A stretch of 45,728 bases of DNA from positions 1-45,728 of the forward strand of contig JBBRTD010000005.1 of NCBI GenBank assembly GCA_038244685.1. Direction: 5' to 3'. This stretch comes from Minisyncoccia bacterium. GTDB taxonomy: Bacteria; Patescibacteriota; Minisyncoccia; Phycocordibacterales; UBA9973. Below, one piece after another: positions 33,932 through 37,768 of the stretch; within the stretch, counting starts at the first letter, position 1, and every line of letters starts with the position of its first letter. The notes beneath the pieces are model-generated. The model was not told the DNA's origin and made no database searches. It saw only the letters and a program-made list of their open reading frames with translations. A program made the position numbers and the translations under genes.

Positions 33932-34543
33932 TTATATATTTTCATTTAATTTGGTGATAACTTTTTTCCAAAATAATGACAAAACTAAAGCTATTAACAG
34001 GAAGAGTACAATTGTAAAATCACCAATTATTTTATTAACAGCCTGCCAACTATTACCAAAAGAATATCCAACGATAGTGTAGAATAATACATTCGCAAAA
34101 GTTCCAAGAATTTCAAATTTTAGAAATTTTTTATAAGATATTTTACTAATACCACAGATTAAATTTATACTTAAAGTCGAAATAACTTCAAATCGACTAA
34201 TAAATATTATTAAACCAGGACGTTTAATAATATTTTTTTCTATTAAATTAAAGTTATTTGATTTGAATATTCTATTTACGAATAGAATTCTTGATAAATA
34301 TTTTTTGCCGTATAGTCTTGCTAGCCAATACAATAAGCTGTCGCCAATTAAATTTGCTATAACAACGATGGAAAGTAGAATTGCTATATTGAAATACCCC
34401 TGACTTGCGAAGGCAGCAGAAGCGACAAGAAGTGTGCCAGCTGGAATAGGCAGTGATGATGCAGCGAGAAAAGTTATAACAAATAAAGCCCAGTATTTAT
34501 AGAGTAATATATAAGGTATTAATGCTTGAACTAAAAAATCCAT
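33932..34543 (-). CDS. DedA/VTT family membrane protein
   Basis: LPIPA, GDSLLYWLAR, SRF, GYSFG motifs. Confidence 0.9.
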   Translation of the reverse strand: MDFLVQALIPYILLYKYWALFVITFLAASSLPIPAGTLLVASAAFASQGYFNIAILLSIVVIANLIGDSLLYWLARLYGKKYLSRILFVNRIFKSNNFNLIEKNIIKRPGLIIFISRFEVISTLSINLICGISKISYKKFLKFEILGTFANVLFYTIVGYSFGNSWQAVNKIIGDFTIVLFLLIALVLSLFWKKVITKLNENI

Positions 34544-34544
34544 T

Positions 34545-34943
34545 CTATTTTGTCATGGAGTAATTAGTAATGACTTGTTCAATTTTATTTAAAAACATTG
34601 ATGAATCAATATTGTTGTGTCTTGTATAATTATCTATACGTATATTTGGATATCTAGGGTCATTGATATTAAGAGTATCCCGAAGATACATTTTGGGTAA
34701 TTTAAAAATAACGTTTATGTAATCAAAAGTCATCCAAGTTTTTATAGTATTTAAATTAATAGTATGGCGAAGACGAGTAGGGTAACCTTTCCTTAGGCTG
34801 TAATCTATTGTTAGCTCTCCTTTTTTATGGAAATTTTTAATTGTAGCGATAAACCAAATAATGGAAACCGAACATAGGAGTATAAGAATAAAGACAATTG
34901 TTTTCTTAACAATAATTTTTTTATCTTGAAAAAGATTTTTCAT
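34545..34943 (-). CDS. hypothetical TM protein coupled to the DedA gene
   Basis: N-terminal TM; WMTFDYIN..F.LP..YL motif; stop 1 nt before DedA start. Confidence 0.8.
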   Translation of the reverse strand: MKNLFQDKKIIVKKTIVFILILLCSVSIIWFIATIKNFHKKGELTIDYSLRKGYPTRLRHTINLNTIKTWMTFDYINVIFKLPKMYLRDTLNINDPRYPNIRIDNYTRHNNIDSSMFLNKIEQVITNYSMTK

Positions 34944-35050
34944 ATTTTTATTATATCAGTTGTTTCATCTTTATTACAAATTATGGCTTGTTTGACAATT
35001 ATTATTATAAAGAATACTCTGAGTTAAAATGTCTCACTAATAATTTAATC

Positions 35051-35446
35051 ATGGGGAAACATGAAATTATTACACAAGAACATCATCGGAGGCCTCGGTC
35101 TATTGGAGGAAAAAATACGAAAGCAAATATCTCCAATGTTAAAAACAGGCTTCATCGCGCTTGGCACGTGCTTGTCGGGAACAAAAATGCCTATCAGACT
35201 TGTATCTTTTTTAATAATGTAAAGTACAAACCCAAAAATGTAAACCTGGTTTGTAAATTTATTAATGGTTCACAAGTTCAAGGAAGTGGAGGAAATAGCT
35301 CAAATAATGATACCCTCATTTCTTATGCCTGGATAACCTTATTCAGGGGAATGTCCTTTAAAGAGATTATTAATTATGTAAACAATGTATTTCTTGATCC
35401 AAGTTATCATATATACATTGAATATGTAACCGTATCTAATGTTTAA
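35051..35446 (+). CDS. HNH-like (His-Me finger) protein
   Basis: HHRRPRSIGG...NIS.V...HRAWH; ATG 35051 lies after TTGACA-17-TACTCT. Confidence 0.65.
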   Translation: MGKHEIITQEHHRRPRSIGGKNTKANISNVKNRLHRAWHVLVGNKNAYQTCIFFNNVKYKPKNVNLVCKFINGSQVQGSGGNSSNNDTLISYAWITLFRGMSFKEIINYVNNVFLDPSYHIYIEYVTVSNV

Positions 35447-35542
35447 TACAAACAGGCTCAACTCCGAGCCTGTTTTTTAATCTTGATTTTTTATATAATA
35501 TATGTTATAATAATTTAAATTTGTTAATTTAAAAAAAGTAAT

Positions 35543-36409
35543 ATGAAAGAACTAAGACTAGTTAGGAAAATGAACCCTTCAGACATCGCTTCTGTCGAAA
35601 GGTATTTGCATGAGATTAATAAAATTCCACTAATTTCCGTAGAAGAAGAAGTTGAACTTGCTGTAAGGATTCATAATGGTGATAATGATGCTTTGTGTAA
35701 ACTCGTAAATGCAAATTTACGATTTGTCGTTTCAATTGCAGTCCAGTATCAAAACAGAGGGCTTAGTCTCCCAGATTTAATCAATGAAGGGAATTTAGGT
35801 ATAATGATTGCCGCTCAAAGATTTGATGAAACTAAAGGTTTTAAATTTATTTCTTATGCTGTTCAGTGGATTCGCCAGTCAATAATTGTGGCCATCTCTG
35901 ATCAAACGAGAATAATAAGAATTCCTTTAAATCATCACAGTAATATGTGGAAGATTAAAACAAAAAGCGAAGATTTTATTCAAGCAAGTGGAGGTGTAGA
36001 AGCTTCCGTAGAAGAGTTATCGGAAAAGTTGGGTATTGCTGAGAAAGTTCTAAGCGATTCAATTTCAGCCTATTCAACAAACTATTCTTCTTTAGATAGA
36101 AGTTACAGAGGAGGAGATGATGAAAATTGTTTACTGGATGTCTTAGTAGATAACGATTCTCCAAATCCTGATAAAAAGCTAATTGTTGAATCACTTAAAT
36201 CAGAAATTGATAGAGTATTTTTAACTCTAAAAGGTCAGGAGTCGGATGTTCTTTCAATGTTTTTTGGTATACACTGTCAAGAAATGACGGTATATCAAAT
36301 AGCCCAAAGAATAGGTGTAAAAGAAAGCCGAGTCAAGCAAATTATATGCGAGACTAAAAAAAAGATAAGGAATTCAGACCGATGTAAGGTTTTGGAAACT
36401 TATCTTTAG
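35543..36409 (+). CDS. RNA polymerase sigma-70 factor, Bacteroidetes primary-sigma type (no region 1.1)
   Basis: YLHEI, EEEVELA, ANLRFVVSIA, DLINEGNLG, FDETKGFKFISYAV.WIRQSI, LLDVL.DNDSP.PD, MFFGI; 288 aa. Confidence 0.93.
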   Translation: MKELRLVRKMNPSDIASVERYLHEINKIPLISVEEEVELAVRIHNGDNDALCKLVNANLRFVVSIAVQYQNRGLSLPDLINEGNLGIMIAAQRFDETKGFKFISYAVQWIRQSIIVAISDQTRIIRIPLNHHSNMWKIKTKSEDFIQASGGVEASVEELSEKLGIAEKVLSDSISAYSTNYSSLDRSYRGGDDENCLLDVLVDNDSPNPDKKLIVESLKSEIDRVFLTLKGQESDVLSMFFGIHCQEMTVYQIAQRIGVKESRVKQIICETKKKIRNSDRCKVLETYL

Positions 36410-36440
36410 AATTGTGCTACCTATGCTTAATCAAATAATT

Positions 36441-36469
36441 GTCCTGCCAGAAACTCTGGCAGGACTTTT
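36441..36469 (+). terminator. terminator of sigma gene
   Basis: GTCCTGCCAGA-AAC-TCTGGCAGGAC-TTTT. Confidence 0.85.
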
Positions 36470-36619
36470 AATTTATGTATATGGTATTTTTCTATAATTT
36501 AAAGTATAATGCGAGCATCTTATTAATAATAAAAAGATGTGTTGTGTTCTCGTCGATTGCACTTGTCCATTAAGGTGAATAAGAGCAACGATATCATGAC
36601 ATTATCTAAAGTATCATAT

Positions 36620-36760
36620 ATGGCAAAAAGAGAGACAGGTCTTCATGTACACGTTAAATCAACAAGATCACACAAAACAGTAAAGCGTTTGGCTGCTAAG
36701 AAGGTTATGCTTGCAAATAAGACAGATAAGAAGAAGTCTGTTATAAAAAATTCTAAATAA
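36620..36760 (+). CDS. small basic protein (46 aa, MAKRETGLHVHVKSTRSHKTVKRLAAKK...)
   Basis: K/R-rich and ribosomal-protein-like; ATG 36620 follows a structured ~105-nt leader and TATAAT at 36505-36510. Confidence 0.7.
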   Translation: MAKRETGLHVHVKSTRSHKTVKRLAAKKVMLANKTDKKKSVIKNSK

Positions 36761-36939
36761 ACCCTTAAACTTATGATAAAATATTGTACTTGATGGTCTA
36801 GGCCAAAGTGCAATGTTTTTCGCTATTGATTAATACCTTGATTAAGGGTACTATTAAAGTACAAAAGCTATTATCTGAAATAAGTCGATTTAGTAATTTC
36901 TATTTTGTACATTATTCATTTAATTAAACATAAAATAAT

Positions 36940-37152
36940 ATGAAAGGAACAATCAAAAAGATCGTTACTGACAAACCATTTGGTTTCATCACTGTAGAAG
37001 GACAGTCAAGTGATGTATTTTTCCACAAGGATAAAGTAGTTGGTGTTTCATTTGAAGATCTTCGTGAAGGTGACACTGTCACTTTTGAAATAGAAGAAAA
37101 TGAGAGAAACGGTGAGAAGAAAACAAGTGCAGTGAACGTAGAACGCGTATAG
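36940..37152 (+). CDS. cspA: cold-shock protein
   Basis: KPFGFI (RNP1), DVFFH (RNP2), AVNV. Confidence 0.95.
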   Translation: MKGTIKKIVTDKPFGFITVEGQSSDVFFHKDKVVGVSFEDLREGDTVTFEIEENERNGEKKTSAVNVERV

Positions 37153-37187
37153 TATCTATTTTTCGTAAGAAGTTTTATACTATAGGT

Positions 37188-37313
37188 AAGGTCACTACTC
37201 TCTATATTCTCGCATGACGGAAGACTCTGTTTCGTATATCTGGCGTAAGTTCACTTATTGCTGTCTGTACAAATCTTGCTCTAACCCCATGAAAGTTTTT
37301 TTAGTGTGACCTT
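37188..37313 (+). ncRNA. candidate rod-shaped ncRNA (possibly 6S-like)
   Basis: TATACT at 37176-37181; closing stem AAGGTCAC/GTGACCTT; terminator 37314-37351; no ORF. Confidence 0.55.
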
Positions 37314-37390
37314 CTGCATTAAAGCCTCCCTCGGGAGGCTTTTGCAGTTTTTGCCTTATAAATTATAAATATTTATGTTATTATTAGTGT

Positions 37391-37768
37391 ATGTTAAAAG
37401 AAATAAAAGATATAATTAAAAGTTTTGATCGTATGGGGGTAAAATTTAGACACATGCTAAGTCATTGGCCTATTTTATACGCATTTATCGGTAGTATTGG
37501 TGTGGTGCTTATATGGAGAGGTGTTTGGATGATTGCCGATGATTTTAATATGTCAGGAACTGCTTCAATGTTTTGGGGAGTTTTAATTTCGATTTCAACC
37601 GGACTCTTTGTTTCATTTTTTGTAGGTGATAAAATAATAATTTCTGGAATTAAACAAGAAAAAAGAATTGACGAAAAAACAGAATCAGAAATAAAGAAAG
37701 AAGAAATTACTTTGACTGAAATTAAGAAAGATTTAAGGGATATTAAAAAAGAAATTGAAGAAAATTAA
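37391..37768 (+). CDS. hypothetical membrane protein with C-terminal coiled coil
   Basis: YAFIGSIGVVLIWRGVW, TGLFVSFFVGD.IIISG. Confidence 0.85.
   Translation: MLKEIKDIIKSFDRMGVKFRHMLSHWPILYAFIGSIGVVLIWRGVWMIADDFNMSGTASMFWGVLISISTGLFVSFFVGDKIIISGIKQEKRIDEKTESEIKKEEITLTEIKKDLRDIKKEIEEN

Follow-up and report, generated by a model that had tools for sequence, protein, structure and literature searches.

Why would a bacterium of the Candidate Phyla Radiation (CPR) that has a housekeeping sigma factor of its own carry in its chromosome a second sigma-70 that resembles the primary sigma factor of another phylum? The question is raised by a stretch of 45,728 nucleotides from a Minisyncoccia bacterium (assembly GCA_038244685.1, contig JBBRTD010000005.1), here called the window, which is a whole 45.7-kb contig of the genome that we designate G000. 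The gene concerned encodes a 288-amino-acid (aa) protein. Our answer, to which we give a probability of about 0.6, is that it is a captured primary sigma gene of the Bacteroidota (Bacteroidia type), thus a xenologue, which is kept in the CPR chromosome as a second, non-housekeeping sigma-70 and works as an alternative sigma factor on the organism's own polymerase. An earlier reading made from the sequence alone had proposed a decoy or hijack effector directed at a host and had added that the protein may instead be a repurposed alternative sigma. The observation is real and broader than that reading saw. What it said about the Bacteroidota type, a native rpoD, changed promoter contacts and the type of promoter has stood, and the Bacteroidota origin is well supported. 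The effector reading is unsupported, and the repurposed alternative sigma fits better.

The features of the sigma unit, all on the forward strand, are given below; the promoter and terminator calls are consensus matches, not mapped sites.

35450 to 35475, plus strand: terminator-like hairpin of 10 pairs followed by a T run (consensus scan), which ends the preceding gene and insulates the sigma unit
35483 to 35511, plus strand: promoter-like site TTGATT-17-TATAAT with an upstream TG (extended -10), the genome's own promoter type (consensus match)
35543 to 36409 including the stop codon, plus strand: open reading frame (ORF) with an ATG start, 288-aa sigma-70 family protein of the Bacteroidota primary-sigma type
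35591 to 35686, plus strand: region 1.2, residues 17 to 48, with no region 1.1 before it (PF00140, 47.9 bits, cut-off 22)
35702 to 35911, plus strand: region 2, residues 54 to 123, with the core-binding part 2.1-2.2 and the -10/melting part 2.3-2.4, Bacteroidota-specific residues kept (PF04542, 59.4 bits, cut-off 24)
35864 to 35866, plus strand: codon of Q108, which replaces the first W of the near-universal region 2.3 motif YAVWWIRQ (alignment)
35987 to 36172, plus strand: diverged region 3, residues 149 to 210 (PF04539, 16.9 bits, below the cut-off of 25.3)
36224 to 36370, plus strand: region 4 with the helix-turn-helix, residues 228 to 276 (PF04545, 32.4 bits, cut-off 24.1)
36320 to 36343, plus strand: recognition-helix residues 260 to 267 of region 4.2, KESRVKQI against TRERVRQI in Bacteroidota and native RpoD (alignment)
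36441 to 36465, plus strand: terminator-like hairpin of 11 pairs (7 G-C) followed by a T run, 32 nucleotides past the stop codon (consensus scan)

The stretch from 35483 to 36469, which had been described as a stand-alone 288-aa sigma-70 without region 1.1, is indeed made up of a promoter-like site, an intact ORF and a terminator-like hairpin. The consensus scan of the region found three terminator-like sites compared to 1.0 +/- 1.0 in shuffled sequence, and its 12 promoter-like sites are not above the shuffles (11.2 +/- 3.1). The protein has no match to the region 1.1 model PF03979, and its Pfam matches begin with region 1.2 at residue 17. The region 3 segment aligns with region 3 of the relatives and forms three helices in a structural model, but its PF04539 score is sub-threshold. 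All NCBIfam equivalogs are missed (TIGR02997, 197.4 against a cut-off of 384.5; TIGR02394, 195.8 against 378.7; TIGR02393, 185.1 against 354), and only the broad superfamily model TIGR02937 passes (93.7 against 42.9). The best scores are to RpoD/SigA-family and RpoS models, with the RpoD/SigA, RpoS and RpoD C-terminal models reaching about half of the cut-off. Sequence matches in the PDB are to SigA, RpoD and RpoS chains, the best being a SigA chain (E = 2.9e-48), and the solved structures found in this way include no Bacteroidota sigma. An AlphaFold2 model built from a 40-row alignment has a mean predicted local distance difference test score (pLDDT) of 80, and sigma-2, sigma-3 and sigma-4 are all helical in it. 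The pLDDT is 86 to 94 in sigma-1.2/2, about 79 to 83 in sigma-3 and 77 to 90 in sigma-4, where the region 4 helices lie at residues 250 to 257 and 261 to 276; it is low only in the region 3.2 linker.

G000 (850 kb in 26 contigs, 96.6% complete, about 31% G+C) has few sigma factors. Region 2 matches occur at six places, namely RpoD (a 453-aa frame on contig C9), the window ORF and four frames of 176 to 197 aa. The native RpoD is 448 aa long, has Pfam regions 1.1, 1.2, 2, 3 and 4 all over the cut-off, and scores 341 bits with the RpoD C-terminal model compared to 186 bits for the window protein. A distinct native housekeeping sigma is thus present in G000, as the sequence-only reading had supposed, and because this RpoD is present, the window sigma is not the organism's housekeeping sigma.

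The origin of the second sigma is apparent from its relatives. A word-indexed search of 5.8 billion proteins was made, and the best 120 rows were considered. The protein itself came first, followed by one metagenomic protein of 288 aa with 63% identity. The rest of the best 120 rows are 285 to 339 aa long, nearly all of them 286 aa, and are 49 to 52% identical over 100% of the query. All organism names given by the sources in these 120 rows belong to the Bacteroidota (Thermophagus, Carboxylicivirga, Geofilum, Marinilabiliaceae, Prolixibacteraceae, Prevotellaceae, Bacteroidales, and Psychroserpens). With its own RpoD, the window protein has only 38% identity by BLAST, or 34.6% over aligned columns. 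In the alignment, the window protein has the signature stretches of the Bacteroidota sigma in regions 1.2, 2, and 4.1 and at its C terminus, and native CPR RpoDs lack them; the motifs that had been quoted as evidence that length and sequence follow the Bacteroidetes housekeeping sigma are among what the alignment shows. Each of the 31 copies compared from the genus is likewise nearer to Bacteroidota RpoD (47 to 93%) than to native RpoD (31 to 43%). The genus copies are often nearer to Bacteroidota RpoD than to other CPR copies, and the Bacteroidota rows are 86 to 91% identical to each other. Judged from these identities, fast branches radiate like a star from a slow centre.

Phylogenetic analysis agrees with this. 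In a careful maximum-likelihood tree of 58 rows, from which the partial copies L033 and L042 were omitted, the short sigmas and Bacteroidia RpoD are split from ten native CPR RpoDs with support of 100/100, so that the window copy groups with Bacteroidota RpoD and not with native CPR RpoD, as the sequence-only reading had expected. The window protein lies in a clade (100/99) with two metagenomic lineages and the copy of genome G058. The copy of genome G042 (L024) is nested among Bacteroidia rows (97/85 and 99/92), and one of the copies from G255, a genome that belongs to another family of the phylum, falls within the Bacteroidia set (98/86). The relatives of one outlying unnamed row are 279-aa RpoDs of Rhodothermales/Rhodothermia. 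When six Rhodothermia RpoDs were added in a quick tree, the Rhodothermia (100) fell outside the group of CPR copies and Bacteroidia RpoD (84 by the Shimodaira-Hasegawa-like approximate likelihood ratio test [SH-aLRT]), and the window protein was in a starred set of 29 rows that includes Bacteroidia rows (96). Support for the backbone is modest (85/87 in the careful tree and 84 in the quick tree), and the named references are only of the Bacteroidia and Rhodothermia types. Approximately unbiased tests, with the two groups chosen once the tree was known, rejected a single clade of all 32 CPR copies (p = 0.0036) and did not reject one of the 30 diverged copies (p = 0.063). The Bacteroidia rows come to lie inside a comb of long CPR branches, and we read this placement as a rate artefact.

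The G042 copy gives the clearest indication of direction. It lies at 1501 to 2361 of its locus on contig C8 and is 93% identical to an RpoD labelled Prolixibacteraceae/Bacteroidia. Its G+C content is 42% compared to 33% in the flanks, and it shares a 64-kb contig with the native rpoD of G042. Because of this 93% identity and because the trees place the family within Bacteroidota diversity, the transfer ran from Bacteroidota to CPR, in at least two events, one of them recent. We also tried G+C as a clock, comparing the excess over the flanks with Bacteroidota identity in 31 copies, and abandoned it, as the two do not go together (Spearman 0.20, p = 0.29); the 93% copy alone is clearly exceptional. 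A phage was rejected as the vector: the best phage match is an rpoD of a Microcystis phage with 39% identity, which is less than the match to Bacteroidota RpoD, and all 159 matching phage records are below 60% identity.

Several related sigmas were seen outside this picture. A contig scan with very specific peptide patterns gave two Treponema loci and one Faecousia locus with 27 to 38% identity. The two on contigs of Treponema metagenome-assembled genomes (MAGs), L046 and L047, encode a 295-aa sigma without region 1.1 that is 38% identical to the window protein and branches outside the Bacteroidota/CPR short-sigma group. Metagenomic sigmas of 280 to 292 aa with 39 to 46% identity to the window protein form about 100 clusters at 50% identity, some of them abundant in public data, and the clusters P0145 and P0152 have about 500 members each. 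Longer proteins of 366 to 446 aa (P0121, P0301 with 446 aa, P0302, and P0303) occur on short metagenomic contigs and are 81 to 83% identical to the G042 copy. P0121 matches the window protein in two stretches, and such long proteins may be fusions, tandem copies or assembly artefacts.

A Bacteroidota-type gene in a CPR assembly could be a foreign fragment that was misassembled or misbinned. Misbinning of this gene does happen, as near-identical Bacteroidota-type sigmas are found under MAG labels of Verrucomicrobia and Methylococcaceae (P0342 and P0351, 286 aa, 92% identical to the Bacteroidia type), unless these are further cross-phylum captures. For the window gene we regard an artefact as extremely improbable. 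The copy is only 52% identical to any Bacteroidota protein, and its G+C content (33.9%, 24% at third codon positions) is close to that of the flanks. The same contig carries the 3' end of a bacterial 16S rRNA, RNase P RNA and tRNA-Asn. Public run X2, assembled separately, gave a contig of 4,339 nucleotides that covers positions 34400 to 37400 with 0 differences and bridges both junctions; X2 is possibly the source sample, so this contig is independent of the assembler only and not of the sample. The chimera that the sequence-only reading had allowed for was not seen. An orthologue in synteny is present in G058. As for the 93% copy, it is on the same contig as that genome's native rpoD, and its upstream region and neighbours are common to diverged copies in two other genomes.

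The family is not limited to these genomes. In the genus, 32 places in 30 of the 93 species genomes (G000 included) match the window protein at 163 bits or more, as open frames of 209 to 343 aa with 39 to 51% identity, and G058 and G083 have two such places each. The native RpoDs found in the same search have 36 to 39% identity and frames of about 430 to 530 aa. Three weaker, long-branch copies (in G044, G041, and G085) also belong to the family, which brings the number of genomes to 33. Of 250 further genomes drawn evenly from the phylum, 105 match at E <= 1e-46 with RpoD-like frames (279 to 593 aa, 35 to 41% identity), the rest miss the threshold, and the short-sigma type is present in one only, G255. 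Its two copies, L049 and L081, are 70% and 50% identical to Bacteroidota RpoD and probably result from an independent capture. A protein identical to the G042 copy is labelled by its source as coming from a Candidatus Nomurabacteria MAG, which is a lineage label only. Replacement of RpoD by the short sigma was considered for G059, G099, and G101, where a short sigma and no long RpoD was found with PF04542; with completeness values of 96, 92, and 89%, these cases are likely assembly gaps and the idea was dropped.

Among 31 loci, five types of synteny recur, and several other loci are unique. Type A (9 loci) has the order YchF, sigma, pterin dehydratase, Sua5, and type B (8 loci) has EF-G, sigma, FKBP and then a MarR-type or HlyD-like gene. 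Type C consists of the window and G058 (2 loci), where the order in G058 is a 132-aa protein, a variable gene, the sigma, CspA and a 125-aa protein; type D is found in G042, G016, and G022 (3 loci), and type E adjoins trigger factor (2 loci). The neighbours are chromosomal housekeeping genes, and those examined, in the window and at other loci, include no integrase, secretion, mobile-element, toxin-like or anti-sigma gene. In G058 and G083, a copy of the conserved type exists beside one that groups with the subclade of the window, G058 as a member and G083 as its sister (SH-aLRT 85). This coexistence of two types suggests that they have different roles. At the type D locus, the copies of G042, G016 (L012), and G022 (L014) are 93%, 64%, and 57% identical to Bacteroidota RpoD and have homologous upstream regions, which resembles the replacement of an older allele by a recent one, or else an extreme difference in rate.

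If the gene were only a passenger of frequent DNA uptake, neutral or already decaying, it would need no function at all. Its spread is patchy (30 to 33 of the 93 genus genomes), the protein diverges about 9 to 70 times as much as native RpoD, regions 3 and 4.2 are poorly conserved, and the copy of G059 departs from the family alignment in region 4.2 as if frameshifted. The substitution rates per nonsynonymous (dN) and synonymous (dS) site tell otherwise. Between G000 and G058, dS is saturated for every gene tested, and the values of dN and dS are 0.02 and 1.57 for the last 285 codons of native rpoD, 0.08 and 2.03 for CspA, 0.16 and 1.58 for the 125-aa neighbour, and 0.44 and 1.93 for the short sigma. 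Over the same domains, the native RpoDs of these two genomes are 99.3% identical and the short sigmas 49.8%. In every pair within a synteny type (46 of 46), the short sigma has diverged further than native RpoD, with a mean divergence ratio of 8.8 to 10.6 in groups A and B. The omega values that could be calculated are 0.13 for L013 and L030 and 0.23 for the copies of the window and G058. The sequences indicate that the short sigma is under purifying selection, much weaker than that on RpoD. In an A+T-rich genome with dS at saturation, neutral drift would have littered the frame with stop codons, so the persistence of full-length frames speaks against neutral decay. The copies are moreover conserved in synteny across species, all their domains are modelled as folded, and the discriminating sigma-2 residues are kept in 31 to 32 of 32 copies. 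We therefore consider a relic improbable; the decay that had been named as a possible objection is not seen, with dN well below dS, intact frames and a folded model. We had also considered an allele swap at the window locus, since 50% identity between G000 and G058 seemed too low beside RpoD cores that are 99.3% identical. With dS saturated at all genes of the locus and at rpoD, vertical descent under weak constraint is enough to explain it, and the swap was rejected.

What has been conserved and what has changed in the protein bears directly on its function. Identity between the window protein and the Bacteroidota consensus is 48% in region 1.2, 76% in 2.1-2.2, 69% in 2.3-2.4, 34% in 3.0-3.1, 52% in 4.1, and 39% in 4.2. 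The core-binding part is thus the best kept and the promoter-contacting parts are altered, through Q108, region 3 and the KESRVKQI helix, very much as had been noted from the letters alone. In region 4.2, the Bacteroidota and native CPR consensus agree at 58%, so at 39% the helix of the window protein has moved beyond what separates the phyla. The T-R-E-R-x-R-Q residues of Escherichia coli sigma-70 read the -35 element; in the window protein, R263 and Q266 are kept. The window belongs to a subclade of four sequences, in which the first W of region 2.3 is Q in the window protein and its 63% relative and N in the other two, and in which the region 4.2 helix differs in each member. Nearly all other CPR copies shown keep WW (exceptions are LW in L014, GW in L041, WY in L029, and one further Q copy), as do all Bacteroidota rows and all native RpoD rows, and many other copies keep T(R/K)ERVRQ. 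In L024, L027, L013, and L025, all of the recognition residues compared are kept. At the 52 columns where the Bacteroidota and native CPR consensus differ, 874 cells of the 32 CPR copies are Bacteroidota-like, 221 native-like and 543 neither.

A sigma of this kind could serve as a brake on the cell's own transcription, with no regulon: a diverged copy would compete with RpoD for the CPR core and damp housekeeping transcription, for example in dormancy. Its best-kept part is the one that binds the core, and the residues for melting and for reading the -35 element have changed. Among the neighbours, a gene for a cold-shock protein is conserved and one for a ribosome hibernation factor lies 3 kb downstream, a setting that is no more than suggestive. 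Against a brake, sigma-4 is still modelled as a helix-turn-helix with the two residues kept in it. We hold a brake to be very unlikely.

The promoter-like signals in front of the short sigma genes are of the types used in their present genome. The promoter counts refer to 451 upstream regions of G000 on the sense strand, on the antisense strand and in shuffles. TGnTATAAT occurs 79 times sense, 21 times antisense and 6.5 +/- 2.2 times in shuffles, and TTGACA-N16-18-TAnnnT occurs 35, 9, and 2.0 times. In a 370-kb sample of G042, TGnTATAAT is found 46 times sense and 8 times antisense, compared to 2.3 in shuffles. The sequence-only reading had described the promoters as of the TTGACA/TATAAT type and not TAnnTTTG; the former type is enriched on the sense strand of G000 and the latter not clearly so. 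Most of the 30 short-sigma upstream regions that were read by eye have a TGTTATAAT-like extended -10 box, and the group A loci have TTGACA-N17-TAttAT instead. At the type D locus, the promoter-like box and the GGAGG-like ribosome-binding site in front of the 93% copy have homologous counterparts at the diverged G016 and G022 copies. According to a passage of PMC6847099, Bacteroidota mRNAs are reported to lack Shine-Dalgarno sequences. The native-type boxes together with the GGAGG-like site suggest that the captured genes were wired into the CPR expression system. A putative autoregulatory site, TAAATTTG, lies 19 nucleotides before the start codon of the window gene; it is not conserved in the syntenic upstream region of G058, about one in eight upstream regions would match by chance, and it was discarded. 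Short pieces from RNA run X10, with 90 to 95% likeness, fall on a conserved stretch of region 2 and neither show nor exclude transcription of the sigma. In runs X3 to X13, no more than small shares of the sequence words are present.

These observations can be joined into the following course of events. A Bacteroidota primary sigma gene was captured by the CPR genus and has been retained in the chromosome beside RpoD. The native RpoD holoenzyme would transcribe it from the sigma-70-type promoter, and the protein made would use its conserved region 2.1-2.2 to bind the core polymerase of the CPR cell itself. It would then transcribe a small regulon from promoters unlike both the native TTGACA/TGnTATAAT and the Bacteroidota TTTG/TAnnTTTG; the choice of promoter would differ because the DNA-reading surfaces have changed (Q108 in 2.3, region 2.4, region 3 and the 4.2 helix). 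An alternative sigma is favoured by the chromosomal site, vertical inheritance within subclades, native-type expression signals, purifying selection much weaker than that on RpoD, a core-binding half that was kept, and parts for reading DNA that were rewritten in some lineages, that of the window included.

Several points weigh against it. Binding to the CPR core is presumed from the conservation of region 2. The first tryptophan of region 2.3 in E. coli sigma-70 helps to open the -10 element (promoter melting), and it is this W that Q108 replaces. The varying 4.2 helix of the subclade could be a loss of DNA reading rather than a change. The sigma-2 residues F61, Q68, N81, I103, S104, V107, and N130 are Bacteroidota-like in 31 to 32 of the 32 CPR copies. 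Convergence towards native RpoD residues was looked for in sigma-2 of these copies and none was seen, so adaptation to a new core is not visible. TAnnTTTG is at most marginally enriched in G000 (61 sense, 49 antisense, 47.1 +/- 6.8 in shuffles), where it has no preferred distance from the start codon, and it is not enriched in the 370-kb sample of G042, the genome with the near-native copy (207 upstream regions; 17 sense, 18 antisense, 21.1 +/- 4.0 in shuffles). No target promoter or regulon was found in G000 or the G042 sample, and a regulon of few promoters would escape such counts. The tree backbone is unresolved, and rooting on native RpoD nests the slow Bacteroidia rows among long CPR branches.

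The promoter TAnnTTTG is given as the -7 box of the Bacteroidota in a passage of PMC12632263, and it is conceivable that the captured sigma still serves such promoters, so that the CPR cell can transcribe DNA with Bacteroidota-type promoters, for example newly acquired genes. Bacteroidota are named, in part of PMC12455944, among the more frequent non-CPR donors to groundwater Patescibacteria, and the four copies that keep every recognition residue compared would be suited to this task. We consider this reading unlikely: the recognition residues of the window copy have changed, and the sigma genes themselves are under native-type promoters. The sense strand shows no enrichment of TAnnTTTG in G000 or in the G042 sample, with the same proviso that a regulon of few genes could escape the counts.

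The most far-reaching alternative is the decoy, according to which the CPR cell makes a copy of the sigma of a Bacteroidota partner, which reaches the cytoplasm of the partner and there either ties up its core RNA polymerase as inactive holoenzyme or redirects it. The family does come from a Bacteroidota primary sigma, with at least one very recent arrival, and its Bacteroidota-specific sigma-2 residues are almost invariant in CPR while the DNA-reading parts drift. A sigma that binds core and is blind to promoters would look like the subclade of the window, with the first tryptophan of region 2.3 gone and the 4.2 helix scrambled, and a population of Bacteroidota-type promoters is seen neither in G000 nor in the G042 sample. 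The protein, however, has no hydrophobic N terminus or membrane segment in a hydropathy scan, which is not a dedicated signal-peptide predictor (maximum over 19 aa, 1.25; first windows negative), and the neighbours examined give no secretion, mobile-element or toxin-like context. Most members of the family keep WW and TRERVRQ, so the loss of DNA reading is not their common theme. The family is inherited vertically in about a third of the genus, mostly behind native-type promoters, and since region 2.2 is near-universal, a decoy would also compete for the CPR's own core. We know of no demonstration that a protein is delivered from CPR cells into their hosts. Taken together, this makes the decoy very unlikely. 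We are just as doubtful of its extension to the whole genus, in which CPR cells would repeatedly take the sigma of a Bacteroidota partner, preserve nearly intact the part that holds Bacteroidota core polymerase and use the protein against or inside that partner, the subclade of the window being a dominant-negative sigma that ties up the polymerase of the partner. If this were true, the family would name the host phylum of a Parcubacteria-type lineage. A host relation with the Bacteroidota is only supposed. The suggestion in the sequence-only reading that the gene hints at host identity is reasonable but an inference: the 93% Bacteroidia-type copy in a sister species demonstrates gene flow from Bacteroidia and not a relation to a host.

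In the window, the neighbours of the sigma gene are genes for META-domain, DUF4342, VTT/DedA, and CspA proteins, a lactate permease, the hibernation factor and a formyltransferase. Directly upstream of the sigma unit, at positions 34988 to 35446 on the forward strand, there is a 152-aa ORF with an HNH-like His/Asn pattern by eye and no Pfam match at E <= 0.001; a histidine-kinase-like gene takes this position in G058. Between the sigma gene and cspA, the 530-nucleotide spacer at 36410 to 36939 holds only a lysine-rich 73-aa ORF without a Pfam match. RNA run X10 contains a 440-nucleotide contig of the cspA of a relative, with 17 differences, which begins 67 nucleotides upstream of the cspA start codon and suggests a long cspA leader. 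At the far end of the window, positions 1 to 375 are the 3' end of the 16S rRNA, followed within about 570 nucleotides by RNase P RNA (947 to 1320), with no tRNAs or 23S rRNA between them. The presence of RNase P RNA at this place suggests that the rRNA genes are unlinked here.

Few proteins are less expected than a primary sigma factor to cross phyla and persist. In this genus, the copies range from a recent arrival with 93% identity to old residents with 47 to 52% identity, and they exist beside the organism's own RpoD. If the captured gene is an alternative sigma, as we favour, the genus offers a natural experiment in which a primary sigma becomes an accessory regulator, the core-binding half being frozen and the DNA-reading parts rewritten, and in which a regulator is added to organisms that have very few. 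The family also points to sustained gene flow from Bacteroidia to CPR and gives a concrete, testable host hypothesis for the lineage, so the short sigma is possibly a clue to the bacteria that CPR cells live with. In a search of the literature on sigma factors of CPR/Patescibacteria, no title or abstract on such a sigma was found; supplementary tables of horizontal gene transfer may list it.

Among known systems, the closest is the sigma-A of the Bacteroidota, of the Bacteroides fragilis type, which Vingadassalom et al. (2005, 2007) are said to have described. The window protein resembles it in its length (sigma-A has about 286 aa), in starting at region 1.2 without a region 1.1 and in the signature stretches, and these sigmas are its nearest relatives by sequence and by tree. 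Sigma-A of this type has no region 1.1 and reads -33 TTTG and -7 TAnnTTTG, according to a passage of PMC12632263. In contrast, the window sigma is not a housekeeping factor, is absent from about two thirds of the genus and lies in a CPR genome with promoters of a type other than -33/-7; its identity is only 52%, Q108 stands where W is expected, region 2.4 has changed, region 3 has diverged and the 4.2 helix has been rewritten.

The group 2 sigmas (RpoS, cyanobacterial SigB to SigE, and actinobacterial SigB) are similar in being second sigmas with regions 1.2 to 4 that are shorter than the RpoD of the same cell. Like them, the window sigma presumably redirects its own core polymerase, and its best NCBIfam scores are to RpoD/SigA-family and RpoS models. 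It differs in falling far below the equivalog cut-offs and in having come from a capture across phyla and not from duplication of its own rpoD. Phage sigma factors and other host-takeover factors are also foreign sigma-like proteins able to redirect or block the polymerase of a host, but the best phage match is only 39% identical and the window gene is chromosomal, among housekeeping genes.

The nearest parallel for the transfer itself is a groundwater survey, part of which reports Bacteroidota as relatively frequent gene donors to Patescibacteria, with gyrB in a Paceibacteria MAG as an example, and raises the proximity of host and symbiont as a possible cause (PMC12455944). Donor and recipient phyla are the same as here, and informational genes are involved in both cases. 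The word sigma occurs 0 times in the main text of that survey, whereas the gene described here is the primary sigma of the donor phylum, has spread across a genus and was acquired more than once.

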